Made by a program: the position numbers and the translations under genes
The notes under the pieces: model-generated
Told to the model about the DNA's origin: nothing
The model's input: the letters and a program-made list of their open reading frames with translations, nothing else
Databases searched by the model: none
Part shown: positions 7,737 to 42,020 of the stretch, one piece after another
How the letters are laid out: each line of letters opens with the position of its first letter
How positions within the stretch are numbered: the first letter of the stretch is position 1
IMG/VR virus record: IMGVR_UViG_3300021599_002177
Location: 1 to 52,651 of that record
Direction: 5' to 3' (one strand)
Source: a virus
Lineage: Duplodnaviria; Caudoviricetes
DNA: 52,651 bases

Positions 7737-7962
7737 TAGGTGTCGCTCCACTATCTGTTGTTGTCGTCTCGCCGTTAACGACTTCTTCTCCGACTAAGTC
7801 TACTGGACATGTGCCAGCTACAGTACAGACAGGCGGCTTGCATTCAGCATTTTCCCAATTGGCAGGATCTTGACATGGGTAGCGATATTGACCCTGATAT
7901 CCACAAGAACTCAGCCCTAAGGCTAGGACTGTAGAACTTAAGAAGACTGCAAGCTTCTTCAT
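7729..7962 (-). CDS. Small Cys-rich lipoprotein
   Basis: MKK + hydrophobic core + LSSC lipobox. Confidence 0.7.
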   Translation of the reverse strand: MKKLAVFLSSTVLALGLSSCGYQGQYRYPCQDPANWENAECKPPVCTVAGTCPVDLVGEEVVNGETTTTDSGATPNG

Positions 7963-17331: not shown

Positions 17332-17682
17332 CTAAACACCTAGGAAATGCTTAACTAAAAAGGTAGCTGCTAAAAGCGTCCAGATAATGTTAAACCATAT
17401 AATAGTTGGTAGTGTCTTAATAGTTGCTGACCATATGAGCAAGATGCTTGTTATAAATGCAAAAATATAAAGCCACCATATTGATATACCAAAAAGTAGA
17501 CCAGGGATAATAATTAAAGCTTTTGTTGTAAAAGCAAGGAACTCGACTGTGTTTGGAATATTCCAATAAGCTTTTGTTTTCATTGTCTTTAATGCATTAA
17601 TCCATTGAAAATGCTTGCGAATATTCCCGTCAAAGACTTCTGCATTTGTGAAGAAGTTTGGGTCTTTATAGTTTTTTACCAT
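17332..17682 (-). CDS. Membrane protein (about 3 TM)
   Basis: Hydrophobic segments. Confidence 0.7.
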   Translation of the reverse strand: MVKNYKDPNFFTNAEVFDGNIRKHFQWINALKTMKTKAYWNIPNTVEFLAFTTKALIIIPGLLFGISIWWLYIFAFITSILLIWSATIKTLPTIIWFNIIWTLLAATFLVKHFLGV

Positions 17683-19256
17683 GTCTCAATCTCCCTCTTC
17701 ATGTATCTAACAAATTTCTTATGATCAACGCACCACTCTTCAACTACTTCATCTTGTACTTTTTTCATAGTATTAAAGTTGTACTCTAAGTCTGGAAAAG
17801 TTACATTGTAGGGGAGAGATTCTTTTGAATGTTTATCTATATTAAACTGACCAATTCCTAAAGCAATTTGATACCAGTTCTCTGCTTGCCAGAAAAGATC
17901 ACTAAAATCTGAAAAACAAAGCAGACGGTATTCTGATATATCAATAAGATCTTTTACTATCTCTGGGGCATTTTCTTTAGTGAACTTCTTCCAGAACTTT
18001 GTATCATCTCTTCCAGACATGTAGTGAAAGTAGATAAAAGCTAGTACATCTTCATTTAACATGCGGAACTTCTTATTAAAATCTTGAACTATTCTTTCGT
18101 CTATAGTGTGCAATGTTTCTGGTTTGGTAAGTACAAATGAAAGAGTAATGATTGACATCCAAATAGAAGTAGCCTCTAAAGGTTCTACAAATCCAGAACA
18201 AAGTCCTACGCTAATGACATTGTTGACCCAAGGTGTTTCGTAGTATCCAGGTTCAAAATTTATTACTCTAGGTACTTCAACCTTAGTTCCAAAATACTCT
18301 TCTGCTTCCTTCTGAGCTTCTTGTGAATTTATTAATGTGGAGTCAAAGACATAACCACAGCCGTAACGTTCTTGTAGAGGGATCTTCCAGATCCACCCAT
18401 ACTTCATAGCTATTGCTTCTGTGTGAGGTGGGATTGCTTCCTCTTCCATAGGAAGGAAGAAAGGAATTGCAGAGTTAACTGGTAGTTTATCTTTGTATGA
18501 GATCCACTTTGATTCAAACTTTTTAGGAAAGAATTTGTTGAATCCAGAGCAATCAAAGACAAAATCTGTTTCAATCACTGTTCCATCTTTTAGAACTAAA
18601 GTTTTTACATCTTTATTCTTATCTTGAGTAAAATCTTCAACAATCCCTTCTACAAGAGTAATCCCTCTTTCTATAGCTATAGCTTTTAGAGATCTTGCTA
18701 GACGCACTGCATCAAAGTGAAGAGCATAGTTAGAAATCTTTTCAAACTGCGCCACTGGATTTTCGCTTGATAAATCTTGTTTTCTTTTGTCGTACATAAA
18801 AGAAACTTTATTTTCTTTTGAAAGCTTTGCATGAAGATCATATTCTCTCTGATCTACTCCAAGATACGAGCCAGTCACATAAATTGACGGTACATCTTGT
18901 AAATATCTAGGCTCTTGTTGGTAGCCTTGAGTTGCAACATTTCCAAATGGTTTAAAAGAGTGATGGTAGAAATCATCGCTACCTTTGTTATTCCAGTTTG
19001 TGAATTTGATTGAAGTCTTTAGCGTTGCTCCTGCTTCTTTTAAGAAAGTAGATACTGGTATGTTTAGAATCTCTAGCAAGTCAACAAAATGAGGGGTAGA
19101 GCCTTCTCCAGCTCCTACAATGCCAATCTCTTCAGACTCTATAAGAGTAATCTTTTTTGTTGGCATTATGGTGTTTATATAAAGAGCAGCTAACCAACCT
19201 GCAGTTCCACCACCTAAAACACACACATTCTCTACAGAGCGAAGATTAGTTGTCAT
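17676..19256 (-). CDS. Flavin-dependent tryptophan halogenase family protein
   Basis: GGGTAGW, GAGEGS, DCSGF, WIWKIP (WxWxIP), GFVEPLEATSI. Confidence 0.9.
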   Translation of the reverse strand: MTTNLRSVENVCVLGGGTAGWLAALYINTIMPTKKITLIESEEIGIVGAGEGSTPHFVDLLEILNIPVSTFLKEAGATLKTSIKFTNWNNKGSDDFYHHSFKPFGNVATQGYQQEPRYLQDVPSIYVTGSYLGVDQREYDLHAKLSKENKVSFMYDKRKQDLSSENPVAQFEKISNYALHFDAVRLARSLKAIAIERGITLVEGIVEDFTQDKNKDVKTLVLKDGTVIETDFVFDCSGFNKFFPKKFESKWISYKDKLPVNSAIPFFLPMEEEAIPPHTEAIAMKYGWIWKIPLQERYGCGYVFDSTLINSQEAQKEAEEYFGTKVEVPRVINFEPGYYETPWVNNVISVGLCSGFVEPLEATSIWMSIITLSFVLTKPETLHTIDERIVQDFNKKFRMLNEDVLAFIYFHYMSGRDDTKFWKKFTKENAPEIVKDLIDISEYRLLCFSDFSDLFWQAENWYQIALGIGQFNIDKHSKESLPYNVTFPDLEYNFNTMKKVQDEVVEEWCVDHKKFVRYMKREIETW

Positions 19257-21402: not shown

Positions 21403-23445
21403 TTATGAATTTGATGTAATAAGTTTAATCTCGCAAGCATCTGTAGTGCAGTAAGCCTCGCCGATAGCATCTGCAGCAAGACCAGCATACACGCCAGAGA
21501 AGTCAATTGGGAACAACTTCATTGTATATTCCTCATACTCTTCTTTTGTAATCTGTGTGTATGGCATTTGAGGATATGTAAAGTTTCCAGATGGAAGGAA
21601 TGAGACAGTCTTTAGCTGGCCATCATGCATATGCAAAACAGTTCCAACATGCTGACCTTCCTTCTCTGGATCAAATGAAATAGTTACAGATACAGAGTTA
21701 TCAGACCAGTAGCGCTGTGCAGTTACTGCAAGTGCCATCTTCTCAAAGATAGTTACATCTTTCTCTGCACGCTCTGCCATTGACTCGATTGGGAAAAAGA
21801 CAACAGAAGTTGTGTCTGGAGATTCTGATGCTGGCTCAATTCTGTAATTAGCAAGCTTGAAGAGTGGAAGCATTGGATCTGAGTTAGCAAAGCGAATAGC
21901 ACGATTGAAGTACTTTCCACCTGGAGTCCAGTGAACTCCTGGAGATTCACCTGCAAGAATTGAAACGGTTCCTGATGGCTTAACGGTTGTGGTTTTGATT
22001 GACTCACGAATGCCTAGCCACTCTGAATAAGTTGTGTCGTAACCCTTTACAACTCCATAGCCTTGATTCATCCACTCTTTAAGAACTGGAAGTCCAATGC
22101 GATCTGCGAAGTTTGCAACACCAGAAACTGAGGTTCCAATTCGACGATTGCGTTGCATGATTGCGTTGGTCTCTTCCCAGTGGGTGGGAAGAAGTGTGAC
22201 AGTCTTTGCATAGAGATAAGCAAACTTAAGTGTGCGCTTGAAATCTTCCATATCATCATGACGATTTAGATATGTTTCAACAAGAGTACACATTTCATAT
22301 GACTCGAGTGATTGTTCAGCGCAAGGGTTGTAACCCATGATGCGATGGTCTTTGTTATTAGGTGGATCGATAAGGCGACCATACTTGCGTGATAGGTCAA
22401 GCCAAACAACGCCTGGTTCACCATTGAGTGCAATACCACTAACAATTCCTGATAGGTCTTGTCCAACTTCTGCTGCAACAGAGTTGTTAGACATCCAACC
22501 CCAACCTGGTGCATCTGGATCGTAAGAGTTGCGCTCTGGGAATACTTCTGCGTTCTTTAGATTAAGGAATGTTTCATCGCCTAATCTTCCGATAAGGAGT
22601 TCAGCAGAGCGACGAACATTGCCAGAAACAACGCAAACGCCAATGAGATTACCAATATCGGCGATATCAGTACGAGTGACTTTTTCATTTTCACGTCCAT
22701 TAAATAACTTTCTAATGTAGTTGTGTAATTTGATAAGTGGATCTGGACCTGCAGCAGTTCCACCAAAAATTTTAATTGGTGCACCAGCTGGACGAACAAG
22801 TGAGTAATCAAATTCAAATGTTGGTTGATCTGGCTTCAAGTATGCATTGATAAGTTGTGCAGTTGTGTTGACCCAACCTTCACGAGAATCTTCAACAACA
22901 ACAGTTACAACTTCATCCTTTGGCTTATAGATTGTGAAATCTTTATCTGCACCAAGGTCATCAAATCCAACGCCAACACCAAGCATTGATGCTTCCATTA
23001 AGAAAGCAAATGGTTTTGCTGGATCGTTCTTTGTCATCTCTCGTGTTGAAACGAAAGCGCAGTTTTGTAATGCTGCAGAGTTTTTCTGCTCGTTAACTAG
23101 TGGTGTTCCCATAACCCAAAGTCCACGTCCTGGCGGAGTCCACTTCAAATTAAATAAACGGTCAAATGCTTCTTTTGCAGAAGCTGCTGCACGAGTATCA
23201 GACCAAGGTAAACGATTAGTTTTGCAGTGATCTTTTTGAATTGAATACATGCCATTGATTACTCGCTCGCATACTTCAACCCAAGTCTCTTTAGTTCCAT
23301 CCTCTTTTTTACGAGAGTATGTACGAAGAAAAGTAATTTCTCCTACAGAGTTTCCACCTGCATCTCTATAACCAAAAGGAGCTTTCTTATCCTTGTAGGT
23401 TGCTAAGAAGTCTTCAGACAACTTAAAAGAAAAAGTAAAAGACAT
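21403..23445 (-). CDS. nrdJ: Class II (adenosylcobalamin) ribonucleotide reductase
   Basis: PPGRGLW, NCAF, GNVRRSA, NPCAEQ, TTVKPSGTVS, C-terminal CTTDAC; no intein apparent. Confidence 0.95.
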   Translation of the reverse strand: MSFTFSFKLSEDFLATYKDKKAPFGYRDAGGNSVGEITFLRTYSRKKEDGTKETWVEVCERVINGMYSIQKDHCKTNRLPWSDTRAAASAKEAFDRLFNLKWTPPGRGLWVMGTPLVNEQKNSAALQNCAFVSTREMTKNDPAKPFAFLMEASMLGVGVGFDDLGADKDFTIYKPKDEVVTVVVEDSREGWVNTTAQLINAYLKPDQPTFEFDYSLVRPAGAPIKIFGGTAAGPDPLIKLHNYIRKLFNGRENEKVTRTDIADIGNLIGVCVVSGNVRRSAELLIGRLGDETFLNLKNAEVFPERNSYDPDAPGWGWMSNNSVAAEVGQDLSGIVSGIALNGEPGVVWLDLSRKYGRLIDPPNNKDHRIMGYNPCAEQSLESYEMCTLVETYLNRHDDMEDFKRTLKFAYLYAKTVTLLPTHWEETNAIMQRNRRIGTSVSGVANFADRIGLPVLKEWMNQGYGVVKGYDTTYSEWLGIRESIKTTTVKPSGTVSILAGESPGVHWTPGGKYFNRAIRFANSDPMLPLFKLANYRIEPASESPDTTSVVFFPIESMAERAEKDVTIFEKMALAVTAQRYWSDNSVSVTISFDPEKEGQHVGTVLHMHDGQLKTVSFLPSGNFTYPQMPYTQITKEEYEEYTMKLFPIDFSGVYAGLAADAIGEAYCTTDACEIKLITSNS

Positions 23446-28904: not shown

Positions 28905-29740
28905 GCGGCGTGGGATAAGCGCTCGCAAAATATATAACGGTTTGGTAACGAGCTCAGGATCCATATCGTGAAACGGTGTTGTTAGTTCCGGGATGTAGCT
29001 AGCTGCAGATCCACAATCGCCTGTGGATAAACGGACAGACTTAGAATTAACCCTGTACGACTAGTGCGAAGTAATGAACAGTAAGTACAACGGGTACACA
29101 AGGAACAACGGGACCAATGGGTCCACATCCTGGAAATGAGAATGTCAGCCGCAGCAATGATCACACTGGAGCTGTAGATCCATCTGTCTTTATTAGTTCC
29201 GGGAAGAGCCCTCTTCGCAAATCGGACAAATGCCCGGCACGAGGTACCCAGGCCACCTGGAAATAACAAGATGTCCGCGGCGAGCGCAGCTGCAGATCCG
29301 ATGCCCGGAAATTACATTGTTCGTGGTCCAGGGCCGGGATGGTCTTCTTGAGGGATTCCAAAGTTGAGTCGGGTTGGCTCAACGTTATGAAGACGGGTCC
29401 GTTGTCTTCTTTTTAAATTGTTAGTTCCAGGTCTACAGCTCAAGCTGACATCAACGGTGGCGGTGGTGGCGGAGGAGGCGTGCCCGCATCAAGCCCGGAA
29501 AATATAATGTAAGCGGCAGCCGCGGATCGAAGACGGGCGTCCCCCGGAAATAACACGGCGTGTTTGGGTTGACAGCTGGGACCGATCCGCACCCGGAAAA
29601 AAGAACGGCAAGTTACCGAGGAGTAGCTGCAGCTGTCGTTGAAACTTCAACTACTTGTAAGTTCCAGGCGGCATGCTAAGGAAGGGGGAAAAAATTAACG
29701 GTGAGGTTATTGAAATAGCGGCGTGGGATGGGTAGGGTTA
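28905..29740. repeat. GC-richer non-coding region with clustered CCNGGAA(A/C)T boxes
   Basis: About ten boxes in both orientations within 0.8 kb; no convincing ORF. Confidence 0.65.
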
Positions 29741-29772
29741 TATATACAAACGGATAGAGAAGGAGTGACGAC

Positions 29773-30210
29773 ATGCAAACATTCTTGCCATACGCAGAGT
29801 TCGAACGGAGTGCACAGGTACTGGACTATCGCAGACTGGGGAAGCAACGGGTAGAGACGTGGCAATTGATAAGAGCAATCAACGGTGAGACCAGAGGGTG
29901 GAGGAATCATCCTGCAGCAGTGATGTGGAGGGACCACGTCCCAGCGCTCGCACTGTATGGAAAAGTTATTTGTGAGGAATGGATTCGAAGAGGGTACAAC
30001 GATTCGATGCTGCCACGATTTGAATTAATACTTTCCGGGCACAGCGAGGATCTGCAGCTGCCATCTTGGTTGGGAAATGAAAACTTCCACGTCTCACACC
30101 AAAGCAACTTGATTCGCAAATTCCCAGAGCACTACAGAATGCATTGGCCAGAGGTACCCGAAGATTTGCCATACATATGGCCGGGAAGTGAAAACGTTCT
30201 GGCAGCCTGA
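29773..30210 (+). CDS. Pyrimidine-dimer DNA glycosylase / MSMEG_6728-like protein
   Basis: MQTFLPY..F..SA..LD.RRLGKQRVE...HPA..MW...E W..RGY...P.WLG...H.SHQSNL.RK. Confidence 0.85.
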   Translation: MQTFLPYAEFERSAQVLDYRRLGKQRVETWQLIRAINGETRGWRNHPAAVMWRDHVPALALYGKVICEEWIRRGYNDSMLPRFELILSGHSEDLQLPSWLGNENFHVSHQSNLIRKFPEHYRMHWPEVPEDLPYIWPGSENVLAA

Positions 30211-30362
30211 CAGCTGTAAAAGATCTTAAGTTTTTATTTCCAGGCCAGGGCCCCAGGAGCTCGACTCACGAGTCGACGTCAATACTTGACATCTGCCCTG
30301 AAGATAGTTATATAATAAATTCACTAGGGAACCCTAGGGTTTTAAATGACGAAAGGACCACC

Positions 30363-30767
30363 ATGGGTCAATACCATGTACTCGTTAACTACGATAAGAA
30401 AGAAGTTGTTACACCACACGAACTCGGCTTGGGTCTCAAGCAATGGGAACACATTGGATTTGAAGGCGGCACGCTTGCAGATGCGCTGTACATCTTGACG
30501 ATGACCAGTCCAGCTCGAGGCGGCGGGGACCTACCTGAGACTGCAATTTCCGGGAGATGGGCTGGAGACCGTTGTTTCGTTTACGGTGACTACACCGAGG
30601 CAAGTGATTTGCCAGACGGTATGTACGAATCGCTTACAGGCAAACTCGAGAAGTTTGAGGAAATCGGCTCGCTCGTTGCAACGGAGATGGGAAAAGTTTT
30701 TGATTTCACGATGAGCGGCGAGGGATGGAAGCACCGCATTAAAAACGGAACGGGTGCTGAAGTCTAA
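30363..30767 (+). CDS. Conserved phage hypothetical
   Basis: MGQYH...N.DK.E...GLKQWE...GRWAGDR...GDY; own promoter TTGACA...TATAAT at 30287-30316. Confidence 0.75.
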   Translation: MGQYHVLVNYDKKEVVTPHELGLGLKQWEHIGFEGGTLADALYILTMTSPARGGGDLPETAISGRWAGDRCFVYGDYTEASDLPDGMYESLTGKLEKFEEIGSLVATEMGKVFDFTMSGEGWKHRIKNGTGAEV

Positions 30768-30929
30768 CCCGGAAAAAAGAATTCAGGCTCGTCTTTAAGC
30801 TGCGTCTGTGAACGGGCAAGACGGCCTGACTATAGGAGGCTAGACCTGCAGGGTCGCTAACGGTTAGCGCTTTGTGTAGCAGGTCTGGTCTCCTTAATTT
30901 TTATATTACTAACGGAGAGGAAAAAAGGA

Positions 30930-31139
30930 ATGAGAAAAATAATTACAAAAATAGAATTTGAATTTGACGAAGCTGTGATGCTCGAGGACCCGGAAAATAC
31001 AATGACGGATGAGGACCTGCTGCAGCACGCTGCCACTTGCTTCACGGAAGACATTGAGCAAATGGTGAAGTACAACGAACTCTTCCAACTTGCGCTCGCC
31101 CAAACAAGATTCGTTCAGGTTGAGGAATTACAGCAGTGA
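30930..31139 (+). CDS. Small acidic hypothetical
   Basis: GGAGAGG RBS. Confidence 0.6.
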   Translation: MRKIITKIEFEFDEAVMLEDPENTMTDEDLLQHAATCFTEDIEQMVKYNELFQLALAQTRFVQVEELQQ

Positions 31140-31391
31140 TGTCCAGGCCAGGAAATAACAAATCCAGATGGGACACCAGAAGAAGGTCATCAGCCCGGAA
31201 CTTAGATTGTTCGCGTTATTTTAAGCGTTTTACTTTTGAGCGTAAATCCACCTGAAGGTGCAGGACCCCGGAGTGGAAATGAAAACTTCTTATAGAAAGA
31301 GAAACTCCTGACCTAGGTGTTCTTGCGCTGTTAAAATAATCTATGATAGGTTTTCACTGCTACACCAAACAAATGACGAAAGGGAAACAAA

Positions 31392-32006
31392 ATGCCAAAT
31401 TGGTGCGAAAACACAATCAGCATTAGTGGGAACGCTGGTTCAATTAAAAATCTAAAAGAGTTTGTTGGCAGACCAATAGATAGACAAGATGAAAAGATAG
31501 AAGAACCTATCTACTCACTTGCCAACATTATGCCTTCAACTCCTGATGCTCCCCCAATACTGGGCGAGGCTTCTAAGAGCACAGGTCATGAGGATTGGTA
31601 TCACAACAACATAAACTCTTGGGGAACTAAGTGGGATGTGGCTGGCAATGTCTTTATGAACGACTACAAAGAAGGCGACGAGTTTATAGGTTATACATTT
31701 GACTCGGCTTGGTCTCCACCAACACCAACAACACGGGCACTGTCAGAGATTTTCCCGGAACTAACTATTGAACATAAGTATTATGAATCTGGTTGTGATT
31801 TCTGGGGTATTGAAACTTACAAGGCTGGCGAGTTGGTATCCGAGGAAGGTGGCGAGTTAAGCCACACCGCTTGGGAACGGCTAGAGATAGACTGTTATCA
31901 GTGCGAACAATACGGAAACGAACCCGAGGAGTATGAAGAGTATCTTTACTCGGACTGCCCACCAGCAATAGAGTTAGCGAAAAAGACAGGCGTGGTATCG
32001 GTATGA
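31392..32006 (+). CDS. DUF1281/YubB-like ferredoxin-fold protein
   Basis: MPNWCEN, WY...WGTKWD, FDSAWSPP, FP.L...YYE.G..F.G. Confidence 0.8.
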   Translation: MPNWCENTISISGNAGSIKNLKEFVGRPIDRQDEKIEEPIYSLANIMPSTPDAPPILGEASKSTGHEDWYHNNINSWGTKWDVAGNVFMNDYKEGDEFIGYTFDSAWSPPTPTTRALSEIFPELTIEHKYYESGCDFWGIETYKAGELVSEEGGELSHTAWERLEIDCYQCEQYGNEPEEYEEYLYSDCPPAIELAKKTGVVSV

Positions 32007-32153
32007 CGGCGAGGGGTAGGGGGAAAAACCTACCCACTCAACGGCAAGAGGAGTTTGGATCCAGGCCAGATGCCCGGAAATAAAAACTTAGAAACGAGAG
32101 ACAGCTTGCAAATACAACCGCTAGACTAACGGCTAGAGAAAGAGAGGACACCA

Positions 32154-32438
32154 ATGGGTCGCATACATTATTTTGACATTGACGGGAACTACGGGAACGC
32201 CAATCAAATAACTCTTGTAGGAACAGAGAACTGGATACACGAGGACTTCCTATTAGTTCGTGAAGCCAAAGATGAGGAACGCTATCTAGTTGCTCGTCTT
32301 GTATCGGATTGGATTACAGAAGGACGAGATACCAAGAAATATAAAAAGGAATTTAAGAAGTATGGATTAAAACCACATACTGCTACTGAACCTGCCCAAG
32401 AACTTCCACCACAGTTAAAAGAGATAGACATGAACTAA
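32154..32438 (+). CDS. Hypothetical
   Basis: YF..DGNYG.A; GAGG RBS. Confidence 0.65.
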   Translation: MGRIHYFDIDGNYGNANQITLVGTENWIHEDFLLVREAKDEERYLVARLVSDWITEGRDTKKYKKEFKKYGLKPHTATEPAQELPPQLKEIDMN

Positions 32439-32464
32439 TAAGATAAGTTCCTATACATATAGAT

Positions 32465-32516
32465 TTCTGCCCTTACGATTTTACTCGTCATTTTATCGTG
32501 AGGGCAGAACCTTTTT
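32465..32516 (+). terminator. 15-bp hairpin with 15-nt loop, followed by a T-tract
   Basis: TTCTGCCCTTACGAT / ATCGTGAGGGCAGAA; loop TTTACTCGTCATTTT. Confidence 0.75.
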
Positions 32517-32635
32517 CCCCCTTCTTATGTAGAAAAAATAAATTGCGACACAACTTGCTTATATGATGAAAACTGCTAGAATTGACCCAACACCGAGTTC
32601 GTAGGGAACTTGGTAAATGACGAAACGAGATACCA

Positions 32636-33097
32636 ATGCTAGACAAAGAAAAACCAATTCAGGGTGTTTCTGTTTATGCCGAGTTTGTAAAACCGGGATA
32701 CAGAACAGAAATGTTTATTACTCCTGACGGATATACCCCGACAGGTGAGATAGTTCCTGCCAAGATTTATCGCAGGGTCGTATCAAAGGACAAGCCAAAG
32801 AAGTTATGGCAACAGACCACAGTTCAGTTCGCAGATGATATTGCGACAGTTGGTGGCTACAAGGATTTATCTGATGTTGCTCTCAAAGACCAATATGTTT
32901 CTAAGCGTTTAGAACACCTACAAGCCATATTCGCTGGTTTGGTATCAGGTGAGTGGGAAATGAAAAATGACCCATTTCTAATAGAAACTTCTCAAAATGA
33001 TTTGATTGAGATTGGCAAAAGTGAAACACCAGTAAAAGTAATTTATCGTATCAACCAAAGCAGAAAAGCACTTGGCTTTCCTGTTGAGATTGCTTAG
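32636..33097 (+). CDS. Hypothetical, first gene of AAA operon
   Basis: 153-aa ORF after TGCTAGAAT promoter. Confidence 0.7.
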   Translation: MLDKEKPIQGVSVYAEFVKPGYRTEMFITPDGYTPTGEIVPAKIYRRVVSKDKPKKLWQQTTVQFADDIATVGGYKDLSDVALKDQYVSKRLEHLQAIFAGLVSGEWEMKNDPFLIETSQNDLIEIGKSETPVKVIYRINQSRKALGFPVEIA

Positions 33098-33109
33098 GGG
33101 GCAATAAAA

Positions 33110-33936
33110 ATGGATACAATTATCAAAGACAAATTGGCAGAACTAAGAGGCGATTTTTGGACTATCGTTTCTGATTGCTTGGCTCAAAGTGTCCATGAGG
33201 ATACTTCTTTGCGACTTGGCGCAAAGGTGTTGCCTAGTGGTCGTTGCGTTGAGCGAGCAAGTGGCGACAAGAGAAAAGCAAGAGAGCGAGTTAGTGCTAT
33301 GACCCCTAGTGGTGTTGAGGTTGAGAACCTAAGTGCTGATGAGTTTTATGTTCGTCCTAATGGACAAAAGTATTTCACTCGCCAATGGGGAGTTCATACT
33401 GATGTAGCAGTTCTACGCAAAGCAAGAGAAGCAACTAAAAAATACTTCACAGAGGGCGTTGGTTCTCCACAGTTCGCATTTTTCTATGGAGTTCCGGGAA
33501 CAGGTAAAACTGCTTTGGTAGAAGCAAGTTTTTGAACCCTGATAGGGGAACTATCAAAGTCCATGAAAACTTTTATGTAATTTCTGCTACCAACCCTAAC
33601 GCTCCGGGAGTTCGCATGAGCGAAGCGTTGCTATCTCGTTTCCAAATCCAAGCAGAACTAACAACTGATTGGTCGTTGGCAAAGAAGTTAGGTGTTCCAG
33701 CGACAATGGTTAGCGTTGCTCAAAATCTTTACAAGCGCACACAAGGCGATAGTGCTGAAATCTCATGGTCGCCACAAATGCGTGAGTTGCTAGGTTTCAG
33801 AGATACAAGTGAAATCTTTGGAACAGAGTTTGCTATCTCTAATCTAATTGCGAGCGCACCTGAATTAGATAGAGATGTTGTTGTTGATGTTATTGCTCGT
33901 GCCTTTGGCGCAGAGCATAAGCCAGCGAAAATCTAG
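33110..33936 (+). pseudogene. MoxR/CbbQ-like AAA+ ATPase split into 33110-33535 and 33532-33936
   Basis: Walker A GVPGTGKT then stop; next frame has ATNP, SEALLSRF, SPQMREL; no Walker B between them. Confidence 0.75.
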
Positions 33937-34009
33937 GTTTTCCCTAGAACCTAGTTGTTGGCTAGGAAGTGGGGGATTGGTGTTGGTATCCCAACCCCCA
34001 CTACTCCTA
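33933..34009 (+). other. Two 3'-UTR hairpins after AAA gene
   Basis: CTAGGTT-TTCCCTAG-AACCTAG and AGTGGGGG(A)TTGG-TGTTGGTATC-CCAACCCCCACT. Confidence 0.7.
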
Positions 34010-34118
34010 CATATAAAGAGAGAAAAAAGATTTTTTCCCCCTTCATATATAGACAAAATAAAAATAAAAATGATATGATATTTCCACAAGGACACACGAT
34101 TAGAAAAGGACACAGGAC

Positions 34119-35826
34119 ATGGCACATATCAAGCCACAGGAACTAAGTCGTTCCAAGATAAAGACACCTAGCGATTGGCTAGGAGTTGGCTATGAAATTA
34201 CTCAATTAGTAAATCTTTGGTCTGATAGAACAGACCTAGTTGCTTTGCTAGGAACAGAAGCAGGTCAAGGCGCACCTGCTTGCTATCTACCTGCTCTCGC
34301 AGAAGTAGAAGTAAATACAAAAGAAGCCTTTGGTGAAATCACTACACCTAACATGATTGACGACTTGACTAAAAGAAAGAACCAATACGAGTTTGCTAAG
34401 GCAGTTGGCGCAATTCGCCATGAGGCATACCACGCAAAGTTTTCAGCATGGGATATTCCACTCGCAGGTAAGACACTAAAGCAAGATGAGTTTGAGGCTT
34501 TGATGTTGCTAGAGGAAGGTCGCATAGAAGCGTGGGGTATCAAGACCCACCCTGACGCAAAAGTTTTTCTACGAGCAAGTGCTATGGGTTTGATTAGCAA
34601 GAATTATCGCAGGGTCGCTTGATGAACTCCAAGCCTTTGATTTAGTAGATAAGGTCAATGGCATTTTAGGTTCTGACCTAGTTATGAAACTAAAGGAAAT
34701 TATTTACCAATTCCAAGACCACGCAATTCATACTGATATTTCTGCTTGCTACCCACTAGCGATTGAGTGGGCGAGATTAGTTCGTGAGAAGGCAGAGGAA
34801 GCAGGGGAACAACCAACTAAAGAGGAACAAGAAGCGTTTGCTGAAATGATGAGCGACTTACTTGGTGAAATGAAAGAAAACATTTCTATCTCTAATGCCA
34901 ATGAGTTATCAGAGCAGAAGCAATCAGAGGACATGAAAGAGAGCGCAACTGCTAAAGCCAATACTTCTAAAGAGCAAAAGAAAAATGAGGAAATTGCTCG
35001 TCAAGTATTCTCAAAGAGTTCAGGTCCGGGAGAGGCAAGCACTCGCTCACAGTTGATTGAGAAGCGAAGCCCAAATGGTAAAGAGCGCAATAGCGCAGTA
35101 AAAATTGCTAGGGCTTTGGATAGAGCAAAGTATCGTGAGCGTGGTGTGATTGAGATTGGAAGTGTTATCCCACCGGGAAAACTAAACACTCGCAAAATTA
35201 TTCAGGCAAAGGCTTTGGAACAAAAAGGTATCTTTACTCAACCAAAGGCTTTCACAAAGAAAGTTCGTAAGCACACAGACGAACCTGAATTATCAGTTGG
35301 CGTAATGGTTGATATATCAGGCTCAATGAGTTCTGCTATGAACCCAATGGCTTCTACTGCTTGGATTATGGGTGAGGCAGTTCGCCGAGTTCAGGGTCGT
35401 TGCGCTATGGTTTATTATGGTTCAGATGTTTTCCCAACTCTCAAAGTTGGACAACGCCTAAAAGATGTAAATGTTTATTCTGCCCCTGACGGAACTGAAA
35501 AGTTTGATAGAGCCTTTCGTGCTTTGGACGGCGCACTCAATCTGCTCAATGGTGAGGGCGCAAGATTATTGGTCGTTGTATCTGACGGACACTACACAAG
35601 TGAGGAAATGGAAAGCGCAAAGGCGTGGGTTGCTCGTTGCTCAAAGAACGGCGTAGCAGTTCTATGGTTGCCAATCGGAGATAACGGCGCAACCGCAAAG
35701 CATATTTGCGCTGGTGCTAACGCAGAGGTCGTTGAGAACATAACTGACCCAAGTGTGTCTGCTTTGATTATCGGCAAGAACGCCGAGAAAGTTTTATCAA
35801 CGGCAGGGCAAAGGTTCGTGGCATGA
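34119..35826 (+). pseudogene. CobT-like metallopeptidase-VWA protein split into 34119-34622 and 34594/34684-35826
   Basis: HEAYH and EEGRIE in 5' part; MIDAS DISGSM, T and VSDG in 3' part; frame changes near 34594. Confidence 0.75.
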
Positions 35827-35840
35827 GATAACGGCGAGGT

Positions 35841-35930
35841 TTCGTGGTCGGGTATCGTCCTTATTGGTGCGTGTGTCCCCCCGATTACGGATAGAGAAAT
35901 CCCCTTCGTGTATGCGAGGGGGATTTTCTT
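35841..35930 (+). terminator. Large-loop hairpin plus intrinsic terminator after VWA gene
   Basis: TTCGTGGTCGGG/CCCGATTACGGA, then AAATCCCCTTCG...CGAGGGGGATTTT. Confidence 0.7.
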
Positions 35931-36284
35931 TTCCCCCTTTATATGTATGCGCTATATAAGAAGGGGGAAAAAACGGATAGGACGAGAGAAGCTTTAGCGA
36001 AAGGAAGTTTTCATTTCCCCTACCTAGCCGACCAGACCGAGTAGTCGTTGAGCGTAAAGTTGCTGAAGCATGACGGAACTAAATAATCTATTTTCCCGCT
36101 TTCATAAAGAGTAAAAATCCTACGAACTTATATTTTCAGTTCCACCCCAAGTCGTTACCCACCCAGGAATTTACGCTCAAAAATTAAAGATGACGCATAG
36201 GAAGTAAAAACTTTTATTTGTTATTGACGATTACTGCTCGCTTTATGATAGGATTTTCCCAAGACAAATGACGAAAGGTAAAAC

Positions 36285-36437
36285 ATGAAATACGAAGTAG
36301 TAGTTTCAGCAAACATCAGAACTGTATGGGAAGCCGATAGTGAGGAACAGGCTTTACGACAAGCAGAGGCTTGGACGGCAGAGGAATATGGCGACCTAGT
36401 TCATAAAGCAAACTTTGACGCAAGGGAGATTTCATAA
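36285..36437 (+). CDS. 50-aa hypothetical
   Basis: MKYEVVV...EADSEEQA; AAATGACGAAAGG leader. Confidence 0.65.
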   Translation: MKYEVVVSANIRTVWEADSEEQALRQAEAWTAEEYGDLVHKANFDAREIS

Positions 36438-36661
36438 TGGCTGAAATCCATTACCTGATTTGTTTTGATACAGAAACTAAAAAATGGAAAGCGGCTGACG
36501 AGGCTTTGGGTTCATGGTTTAGAAACGGCCCGGTGTGGGACGGCCCGGATCATGATGAGGGCAAGTGGAGATTACTAAATTATGACGACCCTATTGAAAT
36601 GGATTTGGAATACGAGGCAACTGAAAAAGTCGGCGAGATGTTACGCCAACTAAATAAGTAG
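36437..36661 (+). CDS. Hypothetical
   Basis: TAATG coupling. Confidence 0.65.
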   Translation: MAEIHYLICFDTETKKWKAADEALGSWFRNGPVWDGPDHDEGKWRLLNYDDPIEMDLEYEATEKVGEMLRQLNK

Positions 36662-36670
36662 GGGGAAAAA

Positions 36671-37138
36671 ATGCCAACGGCAGGGGAATATGAGATTGAG
36701 TTCTTTTGGCTTGACGGAAACACTCCTGACGGCGAGCATCAAGATAGTGTGTGGTGGGAGAACGGAGCGGTCTGCAAAGTTGGCTTGGGTGATTTCGAAG
36801 TAACAATTAATGTAGACGGTGTAACTAGGATTGAGGATAGAGAAACGGGTAGCACCTACACAAGCAGTAGCGAGTTCCCTAGCGAGATAAATAACGACAG
36901 AGCTTTATCGGAAGCGAGTTCTGGAAACTACCCACGCTTTGAGTGGCAAAACAATTCGTGGTTCGACATTTACACATCTGACGGAGAACACTTAGACATG
37001 GTTAATCACGAGGCAGACGAAGCCTTTGACCAAGCGTGTGAGTATTTGATTGAGCAGTTCGTAAATGTTTGTATGATTGAAAATAATCAAATGCCACAAG
37101 TTGAGGGCAGACAAGTCGTGGTTCTTGATTTAGATTAG
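36671..37138 (+). CDS. Acidic hypothetical
   Basis: 155-aa ORF, NNSWF motif. Confidence 0.7.
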   Translation: MPTAGEYEIEFFWLDGNTPDGEHQDSVWWENGAVCKVGLGDFEVTINVDGVTRIEDRETGSTYTSSSEFPSEINNDRALSEASSGNYPRFEWQNNSWFDIYTSDGEHLDMVNHEADEAFDQACEYLIEQFVNVCMIENNQMPQVEGRQVVVLDLD

Positions 37139-37183
37139 ATTTTTGGTAGAATAGACCTAAGACAAAATGACGAGGGGTAAAAA

Positions 37184-37678
37184 ATGCATTGTGTTCAATT
37201 ACTTTTGGTTGAGGCAGATACTCACCAAGAAGCAATAGGGGAAGTTGAAAGCAGACTAGAGGAAGCAGATTGGTCTGATTGGTCTGAAGTTGGTGGTCGC
37301 TGGCAAGGTATGTTCGGAGATGATGAACCTACTAACGCTCTAAATTATGCTAATGACCCTGAAGTATTTATGAAGTGGATAAACACTTTTACTGAATACA
37401 GAACTACTAACATAAAAGAGGCTCTCGCTGGTTTAGATAAAAAGGGAAAAACTCTAAATGAAATTGTGGATACTTATGACCCAAGAGTAAATGATTTTGA
37501 GTTAGGTATGTCTGGCTACTACATAAGAAGGATTGGAACTTTGCTTGCCGATTATTGGACTAGCGATAGTGCTATCTGGGATTTAGCGGCAGGAACAGGA
37601 AATCTAAGTTATCTTATTGAAAGAATAGAAAAAGAACCGAAAAGACAATTTGCAGTAATTGTTGATTTCCACCACTAA
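37184..37678 (+). CDS. Conserved phage hypothetical
   Basis: MH..., DW..VGGRW.G, C-terminal VDFHH. Confidence 0.75.
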   Translation: MHCVQLLLVEADTHQEAIGEVESRLEEADWSDWSEVGGRWQGMFGDDEPTNALNYANDPEVFMKWINTFTEYRTTNIKEALAGLDKKGKTLNEIVDTYDPRVNDFELGMSGYYIRRIGTLLADYWTSDSAIWDLAAGTGNLSYLIERIEKEPKRQFAVIVDFHH

Positions 37679-37718
37679 AAAGAGTAGAATAAAGATACCG
37701 AACAGAAAGGGAAAATAA

Positions 37719-37958
37719 ATGACGGCTTTCGGTGAAATGGTTGAGAACACGACTTACATTGTGGAAACTCCAAAATGTTTTGTGTGTGGAGATTATGGGC
37801 AAGTAGAAGTGCCTATGACGGGTTTTCTAATTAGACAACTCGGTGGGCTAATCCAAGAGGCTTACCCCGATTTAGATTTAGGCTTGCGTGAGCAAATGAT
37901 TTCAGGCACGCACCCTGATTGTTGGGAACTCCGTTTTGGAAAGTGTGAAACGGCGTGA
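37719..37958 (+). CDS. Small zinc-binding phage protein
   Basis: CxxC...IQ.A.P.L....RE..ISGTHP.CW. Confidence 0.75.
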   Translation: MTAFGEMVENTTYIVETPKCFVCGDYGQVEVPMTGFLIRQLGGLIQEAYPDLDLGLREQMISGTHPDCWELRFGKCETA

Positions 37959-38152
37959 GAACAAAAAAGCAAGTCCGTAAGGACATAAAAGACCAAGCAG
38001 AACAAATAATGTATTTCGAGGCAAGTATGCCCGACATAGACAAAGCAACAAAGATGTTAGCCGAACGGCTAGAGAGTCTTTACTATGCTGGTTATGATGA
38101 CGGATTGGATTACGCAGTAAATAATCCTGACAAACTAGGTGCTTCCTACTAA
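37955..38152 (+). CDS. Hypothetical
   Basis: GTGA overlap. Confidence 0.6.
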   Translation: MRTKKQVRKDIKDQAEQIMYFEASMPDIDKATKMLAERLESLYYAGYDDGLDYAVNNPDKLGASY

Positions 38153-38175
38153 CGACAAAACGAAACGGAGAAAAA

Positions 38176-38379
38176 ATGTTTTTCAATGGATTTACTTTAC
38201 TAATGATGATTATTGGCGGTGGGATTGGATTTGCTATCTCACGCTGGACTCTCACTACTGAATACCTTGTGGATAACTTAGCCAATAGAGTTGGACACGA
38301 ATACGACTCGGAAGGTCAAGTTGTTATTTACACAGGACTTTATGACGAGGAACAAGAAGTCTATGCTGAGGGCTACTGA
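38176..38379 (+). CDS. Small membrane protein
   Basis: N-terminal TM; GGAG RBS. Confidence 0.65.
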   Translation: MFFNGFTLLMMIIGGGIGFAISRWTLTTEYLVDNLANRVGHEYDSEGQVVIYTGLYDEEQEVYAEGY

Positions 38380-38509
38380 TTTTTTCCCCCTTATTATGTA
38401 GAGGCGACACAGTAAGTTTGGATTTGCGAAAGGCAGGAAAGTAGGCTATTATTTTCTTACTAGGCAATCACGCTTAGTAAATGACGAAACGAAAGGTAGG
38501 AAGTAGCCA

Positions 38510-38944
38510 ATGGCTAGCACTATCAAATCAAGCACCACAACCACAACCAAAAAGGTTGCTGGTAAGACAGTAAAGACAGTTGTTGATGAAACAACAGTTA
38601 GCGCAACAAGTGATGTTATTTCACTTGATAAGAACAAGAAAAAGGCAGAAGCCTTGATTGCTGAATTGGTTAGATTGCGTGAAGCAATTACCGATTTGGA
38701 AAAGGAAAAGACAGAAGCCACAGAAGCGATTTATGCGCTTATGGGTTGGGAGAAAGTCTTGATTGGCGATACCGAGAAATGGGTCGGCGTTGCTAATAAG
38801 GGAACAATCAACGGCGGAACAAGAATTACAATTTCTAACCGCTCACGCACAGATGTAAATAAGAAACTACTAGAAGCAGATTTCCCTGAAGTCTTTGCCA
38901 AGACTAAAGTGGAAACTACTTACACAGTAGTATCTACTAAATAG
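38510..38944 (+). CDS. Hypothetical coiled-coil protein
   Basis: Own promoter and terminator; ...LLEADFPEVFAK... Confidence 0.7.
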   Translation: MASTIKSSTTTTTKKVAGKTVKTVVDETTVSATSDVISLDKNKKKAEALIAELVRLREAITDLEKEKTEATEAIYALMGWEKVLIGDTEKWVGVANKGTINGGTRITISNRSRTDVNKKLLEADFPEVFAKTKVETTYTVVSTK

Positions 38945-39115
38945 ACAATCCCTAGTCGGCAGAACCCCTTGCGAAAGCAGGGGGTTTTGTTTTTCCCCCC
39001 TACTATGTATAAAGGGGGAAAAAAGAAAACGGCACGAGGTTGTAGAAAAAGTCAGATAGGCTTGGTAGAATAGAGTTGTTAGCAAGGGGCTAACGGCTAG
39101 GGAAAAGGAAAACAA

Positions 39116-39250
39116 ATGAAAGATGTATGGGCTTCATCAGTAAGCGCAGAAATGGCAAACGGCTTGACGAAAAAGGAACTAGAGCAGTTGGTAGAGGAAT
39201 TAGATGATGCGGTAATGCGTGTCTGCCTAGACTTTGGAATAGAGGGGTAA
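39116..39250 (+). CDS. 44-aa hypothetical
   Basis: MKDVWASSV...ELDDAV; promoter and CTAGGGAAAAGG leader. Confidence 0.65.
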   Translation: MKDVWASSVSAEMANGLTKKELEQLVEELDDAVMRVCLDFGIEG

Positions 39251-39254
39251 ATAA

Positions 39255-39569
39255 ATGAGCGCAGAGAAGTATTACTCAACGGGTAGAGATTTAACTATCT
39301 CAATAGTAGAAATCAAGGCGAGCAGTATGGAAGAAGCTGAAGCGGTTATGCAGAGGTTTATAGATAAAATCGCCGAGGTAATGAAGGACGAGGTTCGCTG
39401 GGATGAAGCGGATTGGAGTATTCAGGAAAACACTATGAACGCAGAAGGAACAGGTTATTGGGTAACGGACGAGGGCGTTCCAGATTACTACGAGATGAGT
39501 GATGTGGAAGCAGACGCAGATACTCTTGCGAGCGCAGGACACGGAACGGACGAGGACTACGGGGGATAA
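39255..39569 (+). CDS. Acidic hypothetical
   Basis: C-terminal DAD.LASAGHGTDEDYG motif. Confidence 0.7.
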   Translation: MSAEKYYSTGRDLTISIVEIKASSMEEAEAVMQRFIDKIAEVMKDEVRWDEADWSIQENTMNAEGTGYWVTDEGVPDYYEMSDVEADADTLASAGHGTDEDYGG

Positions 39570-39763
39570 TTTTTCCCGGAGAAGCCCCGCTACTTTTGTA
39601 GTGGGGTTTCTTTTTTTCTCCCTACTATGTAAGAAGGGGAAAAATAAAAATAGTTTTGCAGGTAGTCATTACCCGGAAATGAAAACTTTTGGTTGAGTAT
39701 AGATTTTTCAACAACGCTATGATAAAATTATCTTGTTCATACAAACTAGGGAAAGGCAAGACA

Positions 39764-40144
39764 ATGGACACAATGGAACAGCACACGGTTGAATTAACTA
39801 GCGACTGCACTTGCACTAACGAGGACGGCACGCCTAGTAATGATTGTTTTGATTGCTGGGACGACTCAGTATGGTTGTTCAAGGACTTGATGAACACTTG
39901 GCGCAAGACGGTTGGCGTGGAGTGGGACACCGTAAGAGTTACTGGCAAAGGTATGGGTTGGCAACGCACTAGCGGTGAAGCGGTAATACCGTTCGATGAA
40001 GTCTTAGAGTTATTAAAGATAAACGGGGACTTTACTCTACGGTTCAAGCGTGAAGGCAAAGTCCTTACGGCAACACGGTCAAGCCACGATGAGCCTACTG
40101 GCGCAGGATTTACTTTCACCCTTATTAAAGGAGAGGAAGCATAA
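39764..40144 (+). CDS. Hypothetical
   Basis: Start moved to MDTM after CTAGGGAAAGG; GW...SG, SHDEPTG. Confidence 0.7.
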   Translation: MDTMEQHTVELTSDCTCTNEDGTPSNDCFDCWDDSVWLFKDLMNTWRKTVGVEWDTVRVTGKGMGWQRTSGEAVIPFDEVLELLKINGDFTLRFKREGKVLTATRSSHDEPTGAGFTFTLIKGEEA

Positions 40145-40449: not shown

Positions 40450-40612
40450 TTTTCCCCCATAGTAAGTAGAAGCCCCTGCCAAACGGTGGGGGTTTCTCTT
40501 TGCTACATAAGAAGGGGGAAAAACAAATAAACTTGAAAAGGGCAGGGAAGTAGAGTATTATTTTCTTAACGGCAAATCATTAGGGATAAGCCGATTGTTC
40601 TAGGGAGAACAA

Positions 40613-40993: not shown

Positions 40994-41154
40994 GCAAAAG
41001 TAGAGAAGCCCCTTGCTAAACGGCAAGGGGTTTCTTTTTTCTCCCTATCTATATATAAAGGGGGAAAATAAATAACGGCGTGGAGATATGGAGAAGTGCA
41101 GGAAGGTTTGGTAGAATTAATGCACCAGCAAGGGGCTGGTAAAGAAAGGGAATT

Positions 41155-41838: not shown

Positions 41839-42020
41839 AGTAAAACGAAAGAACCCCCGTCAAACGGCGGGGGTTTTTTTCTTTCTATATATAAAGGGGG
41901 AAAAAAGAAACACCGAGAATGTTATTGAAAAAAGCATGAAAGCAAAGTAGAATAATAACAACTTGGTAGGGGGAAGCCGTTGGTCACCTGAACGACTTGA
42001 ACTCTAGAGGGTCGGAAACA

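Follow-up and report, generated by a model that had tools for sequence, protein, structure and literature searches.

Stem-loops at the 3' ends of adjacent phage operons carry sequences complementary to translation-start leaders

In a 52.6-kb fragment of an uncultivated virus record (IMG/VR IMGVR_UViG_3300021599_002177; "the window" below is this whole stretch of 52,651 nucleotides [nt]), three adjacent plus-strand operons end in stem-loops, T1, T2, and T3, that carry sequences complementary to translation-start leaders. Operon 1 holds an Api92-like gene and a 94-amino-acid (aa) open reading frame (ORF), o94; operon 2 a 153-aa ORF, o153, and an AAA ATPase gene; and operon 3 a VWA/CobT-like gene. 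We show that the complementarity of T2 and T3 to their own start regions is specific, is maintained by coordinated change among related phages, and is borne on covarying stems; T1 matches a generic leader box. Complementarity kept in this way points to RNA-based translational self-control, which would be new for DNA phages. On these sequence comparisons, we consider it fairly probable that the anti-leader loops at the 3' ends base-pair with the leaders, whether in cis or in the form of 3'-derived RNAs, and thereby limit translation.

Gene-specific complementarity of T2 and T3

T2 (33968-34002, plus strand, as are all features below unless stated otherwise) lies 3' of the ATPase gene of operon 2 (32636-33936), in which o153 (32636-33097) is followed by the ATPase gene, here split into 33110-33535 and 33532-33936. 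Its apex TTGGTATC (33983-33990) is complementary to positions -7 to +1 of the o153 start; the operon 2 leader and start (32615-32638) comprise a generic box (32615-32623), GATACCAA (32629-32636), and the ATG at 32636. T2 has no directly adjoining T-run and so is not an intrinsic terminator in form, and a further small hairpin (33934-33953) overlaps the stop codon of the ATPase gene. T3 (35844-35888) follows operon 3 (34119-35826), in which the VWA/CobT-like gene is split into 34119-34622 and 34684-35826. The covarying outer stem of T3 encloses both GTCCTT (35857-35862), an anti-Shine-Dalgarno sequence, and CGTGTGTCC (35870-35878), and the VWA gene leader (34090-34121) contains GGACACACG (34090-34098), the Shine-Dalgarno region AAGGAC (34106-34111), and the ATG at 34119. 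The match is thus bipartite and collinear, the reverse complement of T3 and the leader both reading GGACACACG, 7 nt, AAGGAC. T3 lacks a T-run itself and is separate from the intrinsic terminator of operon 3 (35896-35927; 13-bp stem, 6-nt loop, T-run). The elements begin 20 to 45 nt past the stop codon on the same strand as the genes, with T3 then followed by the terminator.

Within the window alone, duplex energies were compared with 500 dinucleotide shuffles per loop (RNAduplex). The T2 apex scored -17.8 kcal/mol against its own o153 leader (13 of 500 shuffles as good) and T3 scored -26.6 kcal/mol against its own VWA leader (7 of 500), and in both cases the own leader was the best of 8; a longest-complement test of T3 gave a P value of 0.0083. 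The individual matches in the window are 6 to 9 nt, and we regard the window-only signal as suggestive.

The original prediction had held that the loops closing all three operons are antisense to their own 5' leaders, which the duplex comparison bore out for operons 2 and 3 and not for operon 1, where the match is to the generic box. Every string it listed was found where it had been placed: AAATGACGA at 31371, TCGTCATTT at 32485-32493, CCAACACC at 32587, TAGGGAA at 32602, GATACCAA at 32629, TTCCCTA at 33940, GGTGTTGG at 33979, TTGGTATC at 33983, GGACACACG at 34090, AAGGAC at 34106, GTCCTT at 35857, and CGTGTGTCC at 35870. The anti-leaders of operons 2 and 3 had been placed in 3' hairpins or their loops; in the minimum-energy fold the complementary strings lie partly in weak inner helices, so that they are less than cleanly exposed, and TTCCCTA is mostly stem. 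Two additional pairs fared less well among relatives, as GGTGTTGG~CCAACACC is already broken in the relative L001, and TTCCCTA~TAGGGAA is kept in the window, L001, and L002 and lost in the others. The observation of 3' hairpin loops antisense to leaders is therefore partly confirmed.

Relatives were collected from IMG/VR with the VWA protein, by a first scan (18 loci, 46 to 95% protein identity) and by an alignment-based scan that included the first-scan contigs (80 loci, 47 to 93% identity). The gene order o153, AAA ATPase, VWA is kept in 73 of the 80 loci, and synteny of all three units holds in L001 to L011. As the 3' region we took the stop codon to +75 or +85, as the leader positions -35 to +6, and as the score the longest perfect complement; empirical P values were obtained by comparison with every 41-nt window of that locus, plus and minus strand alike; such background windows contain on average a complement of 5.3 to 5.8 nt. 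Three loci without a usable VWA start or with too little flank were dropped, and T2 was scored only where the protein alignment starts at residue 1. For the swap test, in which cognate leaders were exchanged, we used representatives separated from one another by differences at more than 10 of the 41 leader positions.

The 77 remaining loci gave 59 distinct T3-leader pairs, and the complement to the own leader reached at least 8 nt in 47 of them, with empirical P values below 0.05 in 42 and below 0.01 in 23 (median 0.02). Against the o153 leader as control, only 2 of 39 pairs fell below 0.05 (median P, 0.50), and the cognate match was longer than the control in 35 of these 39 pairs, equal in 3, and shorter in 1 (Wilcoxon P, 3e-7). 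When leaders were swapped among 39 representatives, the mean match dropped from 8.72 nt to 6.61 nt, and 0 of 20,000 permutations reached the cognate mean. The best-matching leader segments comprised 34 different sequences, most of them starting at -18 to -13, i.e., in the Shine-Dalgarno region.

T2 behaved similarly. Among 40 distinct pairs, the match to the own leader was at least 8 nt in 23, with P values below 0.05 in 15 and below 0.01 in 7 (median 0.08), compared to 2 of 40 below 0.05 for the other operon's leader (median P, 0.49); cognate matches were longer than the control in 32 pairs, equal in 7, and shorter in 1 (Wilcoxon P, 3e-7). Swapping among 25 representatives lowered the mean from 8.00 nt to 6.40 nt, and again 0 of 20,000 permutations reached the cognate mean. 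With refined start codons, at least 8 nt were matched in 12 of 17 further distinct loci, mostly between the apical loop and positions -12 to +3. An apex test with windows chosen post hoc gave P values of 0.0037 in the window, 0.0077 in L005, 0.18 in L013, and 0.06 in L017 (strongest hairpin), and none of the 25,950 background windows in L002 or the 25,938 in L007 did as well; a 7-nt match in the smaller first hairpin of L017 was spotted by eye and is unscored. With the relatives included, the complementarity signal is strong.

The letters that form these matches change from lineage to lineage. For T2, the TTGGTATC~GATACCAA pairing is kept by covariation, with sequences unrelated between lineages: GGTATCTCT~AGAGATACC in L002, TTCTCTCT~AGAGAGAA (9-nt loop) in L005, L006, and L009, CATGGGTGT~ACACCCATG (-6 to +3) in L007, and CATGGGTG~CACCCATG in L008. 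A compensatory change separates L036 (CTGGGTGTTT~AAACACCCAG) from L064 (TGAGTGTTT~AAACACTCA). For T3, CGTGTGTCC~GGACACACG is conserved in near relatives and GTCCTT~AAGGAC is kept by covariation, the Shine-Dalgarno segment reading TCGTCCTT~AAGGACGA in L002 and TTTCCCTTT~AAAGGGAAA in L005, and a double change distinguishes GTTCCC~GGGAAC in L006 from TTTCCC~GGGAAA in L005. Further T3 pairs are TCTTTCCCT~AGGGAAAGA (L009), TCGTCCTTTTC~GAAAAGGACGA (L007), CTTCCGTCA~TGACGGAAG (L013), and, in L017, GTTTCGTTCC~GGAACGAAAC plus CCCATTTCT~AGAAATGGG across the start codon.

In distant relatives, T3 takes the form of an 11- to 16-bp stem with a 13- to 20-nt apical loop bearing the anti-leader, and 324 of 437 matched nucleotides are unpaired in the minimum-energy fold. 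RNAalifold on a 14-sequence subgroup of T3 returned 10 stem pairs; in 8 of them both partners have changed in a compensatory way, whereas the core of the enclosed loop, CTTCCGTCA, does not vary. When 33 diverse T3 sequences were used, their poor alignment yielded no structure.

A search for similar DNA in a phage collection gave one weak match (67% identity over 242 nt), to DSL-LC01 (OQ999401), a metagenome-assembled Actinomycetia phage with a public genome. Its gene order is that of the window, with a hypothetical gene, an AAA ATPase, and a "cobalamin biosynthesis protein." Past its CobT gene stands a 16-bp stem with a loop of about 20 nt, in which two segments match the own leader, GTTTACTTGTCCT~AGGACAAGTAAAC (13 nt, at -33) and TTGTCCTTT~AAAGGACAA (9 nt, at -12), and among 33 leaders the own leader ranked first for this loop.

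Two other complements of the window T2 loop, of 11 nt within the Api92-like coding region (31718-31728) and of 8 nt on the o94 start (ACACCAAT, 32148-32155; not kept in L001), are probably incidental.

The generic leader box and the T1 hairpin

The leader of operon 1 carries the box AAATGACGA (31371-31379) ahead of the Api92-like start at 31392. Seven copies of AAATGACGA occur in the window, compared to 0.55 expected, and the six on the plus strand all lie downstream of sigma70-like -10 boxes, five of them 19 to 21 nt upstream of an ATG and the copy at 38479 31 nt upstream. The sole inverted copy is in T1 (32465-32509), a hairpin whose stem of 15 bp carries a loop of 15 nt (32480-32494) holding TCGTCATTT (32485-32493), the complement of the generic box. 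As originally proposed, the hairpin exposes this match, which falls wholly inside the loop; the fold has an energy of -24.9 kcal/mol (z score, -6.0; 0 of 200 shuffles as good). T1 is an intrinsic terminator, a G+C-rich hairpin followed by CCTTTTT.

In the window, the T1 loop scored -10.9 kcal/mol against its own api92 leader, with 27 of 500 shuffles as good, and it fits all 6 box-bearing leaders; its best partner is the leader at 37165, with an 11-nt match at -15.2 kcal/mol (7 of 500 shuffles). Given this fit to every box-bearing leader and the seven occurrences of AAATGACGA in the window, the target of T1 is the generic leader box and is not specific to its own operon.

The T1 stem covaries among relatives (e.g., ACGAT/ATCGT, ATAC/GTGT, ACGC/GCGT), and all 8 distinct lineages keep the loop sequence TTTTAyTCGTCrTTTkA. 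In most relatives the box, as a T or C variant, is present in 3 to 8 plus-strand copies per 13-kb locus; no plus-strand copy was found in the L017 locus. The TCGTCATTT~AAATGACGA match is kept, and a compensatory change is seen between L007, with TCGTCATTT and AAATGACGA, and its sister L008, with TCGTCGTTT and AAACGACGA; the next leader after T1 reads AAATGACGAA in L007 and AAACGACGAA in L008. T1-type hairpins recur elsewhere, at the T2 position in L086, in L088, and in DSL-LC01 (41358), all three with TTCGTCGTT in the loop. Across the 10 distinct T1-type hairpins, the A/G variant of the loop tracks the T/C variant of the leader box in every case: six carry TCGTCATT and their loci have no AACGACGA box, and four carry TCGTCGTT and stand in loci where AACGACGA is at least as frequent as AATGACGA.

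Proposed mode of action and alternative explanations

Compensatory loop/leader changes were found in relatives for all three elements, and cognate pairs outperformed both non-cognate and swapped pairs, findings that support the originally proposed pairing of 3' loops with 5' leaders, in cis or through 3'-derived RNAs. A stable stem-loop closes each of the three units (api92-o94, o153-ATPase, and VWA/CobT-like), and an apical or internal stretch of it that is left unpaired, the "anti-leader," offers 8 to 13 nt complementary to a translation-start leader. T2 and T3 are gene specific, T2 matching its operon at the start codon of the leading gene and T3 its own Shine-Dalgarno region and, in the close relatives of the window, also an upstream leader segment; T1 matches the generic box, which is present in most of the phage's sigma70-type leaders. 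In the mechanism we propose, completion of the mRNA 3' end would allow the loop to pair with the leader, either intramolecularly or after release in a 3' fragment that resists nucleases and reaches newly made transcripts, and occlusion of the ribosome-binding site would limit the output per transcript, a form of negative autoregulation. T1 may act likewise on the whole set of box-bearing leaders. That the partners meet as RNA we infer from their patterns of change, with which action in cis and action in trans would both be compatible. Repression of initiation appears the likeliest effect, since in most cases pairing would cover the start codon or the ribosome-binding site, and it would fit the blocked initiation and faster decay reported for distant anti-Shine-Dalgarno-like sequences (PMC12697547).

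Possible as well, though proposed only tentatively, is a broader arrangement in which the leaders carry RNA "addresses," either the generic box or a gene-specific variant, and long 3' stem-loops display the corresponding anti-box. The gene-specific T2 and T3 loops would then close their own mRNA or feed back on it, and the T1-type loop, whose genomic position varies between phages, would act in trans on the full set of early leaders with a box, timing their expression or shutting it off without any protein. Orthogonal box/anti-box pairs would be expected to evolve in the manner of the c4 specificities of phages P1 and P7.

Several observations weigh against translational repression through the 3' loops. 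The sign of the effect, repression or stabilization, is something that we purely infer. T2 has no T-run that would mark a transcript end, about half of each anti-leader string of T2 and T3 in the window lies in weak helices, and the match shrinks to 6 nt for T2 in the L013 group and DSL-LC01 and to less than 8 nt for T3 in 12 of 59 pairs. The cognate, control, and swap statistics are uncorrected for phylogeny, relatives sharing solutions, and the apex and translation initiation region windows of the apex test were picked post hoc. In DSL-LC01 only the CobT unit stands out, the feature being absent from the other 32 units. At the RNA level, two metatranscriptomes gave only a few short contigs, which show neither ends, strand, nor level and do not bear on the pairing either way. 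Finally, both target genes are broken in the window, and the pairing system may here be a relic: relative to L001, whose intact ORFs encode 352 aa (ATPase) and 593 aa (VWA), the ATPase gene has a 232-nt internal frame-shifting deletion at 33533 and the VWA gene one of 74 nt at 34597. These deletions reflect either real decay of the ATPase/VWA module in the window virus or an assembly artifact; in 78 of 79 relatives with a usable start, the VWA gene is one intact ORF of about 550 to 600 aa or more.

The same complementarity and covariation would be expected if the effect were the opposite one, with the 3' loop closing the mRNA and protecting the 5' terminus, or else a site of nuclease attack within the leader, so as to stabilize the message or time its activation. 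Part of the pairing does lie upstream of the ribosome-binding site (GGACACACG at -29; AGGACAAGTAAAC at -33 in DSL-LC01), and hok-type mRNAs, which are activated by 3' trimming, offer a parallel. The 5'/3'-untranslated region (UTR) interaction reported for Bacillus subtilis hbs provides a precedent (PMC5737220). Most lineages, however, pair over the Shine-Dalgarno sequence (T3) or the start codon (T2), where pairing should compete with the ribosome, and we consider stabilization unlikely.

Far less probable is an origin at the DNA or protein level, i.e., paired protein-binding sites at the ends of units or inverted repeats left by mobile cassettes or recombination. The generic box is frequent and once inverted, and the region is composed of promoter and terminator cassettes, as such an origin would suggest. 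It fits poorly because the unit-specific sequences that drift between lineages and stay complementary (34 solutions for T3) always place one partner in the loop of an RNA hairpin, the stem of which covaries, and the other on the Shine-Dalgarno sequence or start codon; repeats of 8 to 13 bp would also seem too short for homogenization by recombination.

We likewise give little credence to the idea that the functional RNAs are minus-strand transcripts, acting as mimics or decoys or by antisense silencing, from promoter-like motifs aimed into the ends of operons 1 to 3. Such a motif (the reverse complement of TTTTCCCCCTT..TATrTAG) does oppose the operons at 32514, 34034, 35930, and 38383, and in sense orientation it stands about 25 nt upstream of plus-strand starts at 39 to 46 kb. 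This explanation fits poorly because the motif is missing in many relatives that keep the match, both beside T1 (L002, L007, and L008) and beside T3 (DSL-LC01 and other distant relatives), and no minus-strand ORF or start was found downstream of it.

Chance matching of pyrimidine-rich 3' regions to purine-rich ribosome-binding sites, to which the short window matches (6 to 9 nt, against the background average given above), the low-complexity pairs TTCTCTCT~AGAGAGAA and TTTCCCTTT~AAAGGGAAA, and the abundance of chance 8-mers in a blind hairpin scan of the window might be ascribed, is the least credible explanation of all, given that non-cognate leaders, which also have ribosome-binding sites, yield a median P of about 0.5, that none of the 20,000 permutations in either swap test reached the cognate mean, and that high-complexity solutions such as CATGGGTGT, TGACGGAAGGAT, and GTTTACTTGTCCT exist.

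Genomic setting and comparison with known systems

The window has a G+C content of 41.6% and an estimated completeness of about 40%, and its genes include one for a portal protein. Two auxiliary-type genes were noted on the minus strand, for a tryptophan halogenase (17676-19256; Pfam E value, 4e-101) and for a B12-dependent class II ribonucleotide reductase (21403-23445). From 30.3 to 38.9 kb, plus-strand genes follow sigma70-like promoters in a region assembled from promoter and terminator cassettes. Operon 1 (31392-32438), with synteny in relatives, consists of the Api92-like/DUF1281_C gene (31392-32006), a non-coding spacer, and o94 (32154-32438). The spacer (32007-32153), also conserved in relatives, contains a covarying hairpin (GGGGTAGG..CCTACCC) and repeated AACGGCrAG-like words, and may be a structured RNA. 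A hairpin with a G-rich loop in the operon 2 leader (32592-32612) has a stem that covaries in relatives (GAGTTC/GAACTT, ATGCGTT/AACGCAT, TCGCAC/GTGCGA).

A second motif, CTATATAwrAAGGGGGAAAA, is spread over 27509-49254, its core giving 35 matches at no more than one mismatch, compared to 5.1 expected (e.g., 41049-41068 on the plus strand; 32514-32533 and 34033-34052 on the minus strand). At 39 to 46 kb it stands in sense orientation directly behind hairpin and T-run terminators, about 25 nt ahead of plus-strand starts, and resembles a phage-specific promoter with only a -10-type element. Copies oppose sigma70 operons at 32.5, 34.0, 35.9, and 38.4 kb, and back-to-back copies stand at 35930/35970 and 38992/39021; the motif could drive antisense transcription of the earlier operons. 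Downstream of a plus-oriented promoter-like copy (35952-35971), about 270 nt (35972-36245) contain no ORF of at least 40 aa, are partly conserved in relatives past the VWA gene, and form a candidate non-coding RNA. The word AACGGCRAG occurs 8 times (at 7768, 29604, 32040, 35830, 40733, 41019, 42274, and 47698), compared to 0.38 expected. Several terminators (40468-40497, 41002-41037, and 41847-41880) have loops filled by related AAACGG words, which also stand in leaders after the GGGGGAAAA motif, in the same sense in both places and hence not complementary; possibly this is a protein-binding RNA word.

The arrangement is not general. DSL-LC01 was divided into 33 units (18 to 48 kb, split at gaps of at least 70 nt), over which the cognate mean was 5.24 nt and the non-cognate mean 5.23 nt, with 10,198 of 20,000 permutations doing as well, and a genome-wide rule was rejected on this lack of a cognate excess. 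In the window, the sigma70-type units 36285-37138 and 37184-38379 have no 3' hairpin, and a tetraloop terminator closes the unit 38510-38944. When every hairpin of the window was compared blindly with 6 kb of upstream sequence, chance 8-mers swamped the result.

The available part of the DSL-LC01 paper gives Actinomycetia as the predicted host, and the word "terminator" is absent from that part (PMC10611076). From the kinship with DSL-LC01 and the lake origin of the runs, our guess is that the window phage infects a freshwater actinobacterium. Two lake metatranscriptomes contained 5 to 6% of sampled words; one yielded three 151-nt contigs, of which one (33872-34022) spans the ATPase end and T2 without differences, and the other mostly relatives at 90 to 99%.

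An Rfam 15 scan of 29000-40000 at E values up to 1 returned only two sub-threshold chance matches to snoRNAs (0.13 and 0.93), and no family, c4 included, was matched there. The c4 antisense RNA of phages P1 and P7 shares both strand and transcript with its target, has loops complementary to the ribosome-binding region of that target, and differs in specificity between related phages by coordinated changes. The loops described here resemble it in their complementarity to ribosome-binding regions and in their coordinated changes between relatives, whereas c4 is encoded upstream of the target, is released by processing as an RNA of its own, and serves in the control of immunity.

In hok-type toxin mRNAs, the 3' end of the full-length message pairs with the 5' translation region and keeps it closed until 3' trimming activates it, and an antisense RNA stands guard. 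The phage genes, in contrast, form an ATPase/VWA module with small ORFs, and no antitoxin RNA was seen. AapA1 of Helicobacter pylori is reported to be a type I toxin mRNA with such a 5'-3' fold-back (PMC6733600).

A 5'-3' UTR interaction is also reported for the icaR mRNA of Staphylococcus aureus (PMC3868564). The phage units share with it a 3' UTR sequence that is complementary to the leader or ribosome-binding region of their own unit, and with the icaR, hbs, and hok types a complementarity that is evolutionarily maintained and cognate specific. In icaR, the 3' UTR sequence reportedly pairs with the Shine-Dalgarno region of its own mRNA and controls translation. Unlike icaR, the phage has its anti-leader in an apical loop, borne on a long stem that covaries, and repeats this in two or three adjacent operons; its pairs persist although the sequences forming them differ widely, there is also a generic version (T1), and the system is known here from sequence alone.

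OppZ and CarZ of Vibrio cholerae are reported to be autoregulatory small RNAs derived from 3' UTRs (PMC7398697). Like them, the phage elements come from operon 3' ends and are complementary to a translation start of the parent operon, an arrangement that in OppZ and CarZ gives negative feedback. Both are said to be cut out by RNase E, to depend on Hfq, and to carry a single-stranded seed 5' of the terminator. The phage seed is instead a hairpin loop, and its target is the first cistron.

In B. subtilis mRNAs, pyrimidine-rich anti-Shine-Dalgarno-like sequences hundreds of nucleotides downstream pair with the ribosome-binding site, which reportedly blocks initiation and promotes decay (PMC12697547). 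Those sequences are deleterious and depleted from genes, in contrast to the phage version, which is conserved, gene specific, and set on a stem-loop.

In a literature search over partly accessible texts, no elements of this kind turned up for DNA phages. The regulatory logic itself is already known, end-to-end pairing of mRNAs and 3'-derived feedback having been found experimentally in a handful of cellular genes. What is new is the setting in double-stranded DNA phages, the long stem that presents the anti-leader in its apical loop, the recurrence of this in neighboring units of an ATPase/VWA module, the occurrence of gene-specific and generic pairs side by side, and the depth of natural covariation. 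Here the same logic is visible in a family of uncultivated lake phages, dozens of lineages of which keep the complementarity and change the letters, providing natural covariation data on the long-range pairing of mRNA, a compact design that needs no protein (an anti-leader on a stem-loop) and that could be tested and reused, and a lead on the dosing of a widespread phage ATPase/VWA (CobS/CobT-like) gene pair.

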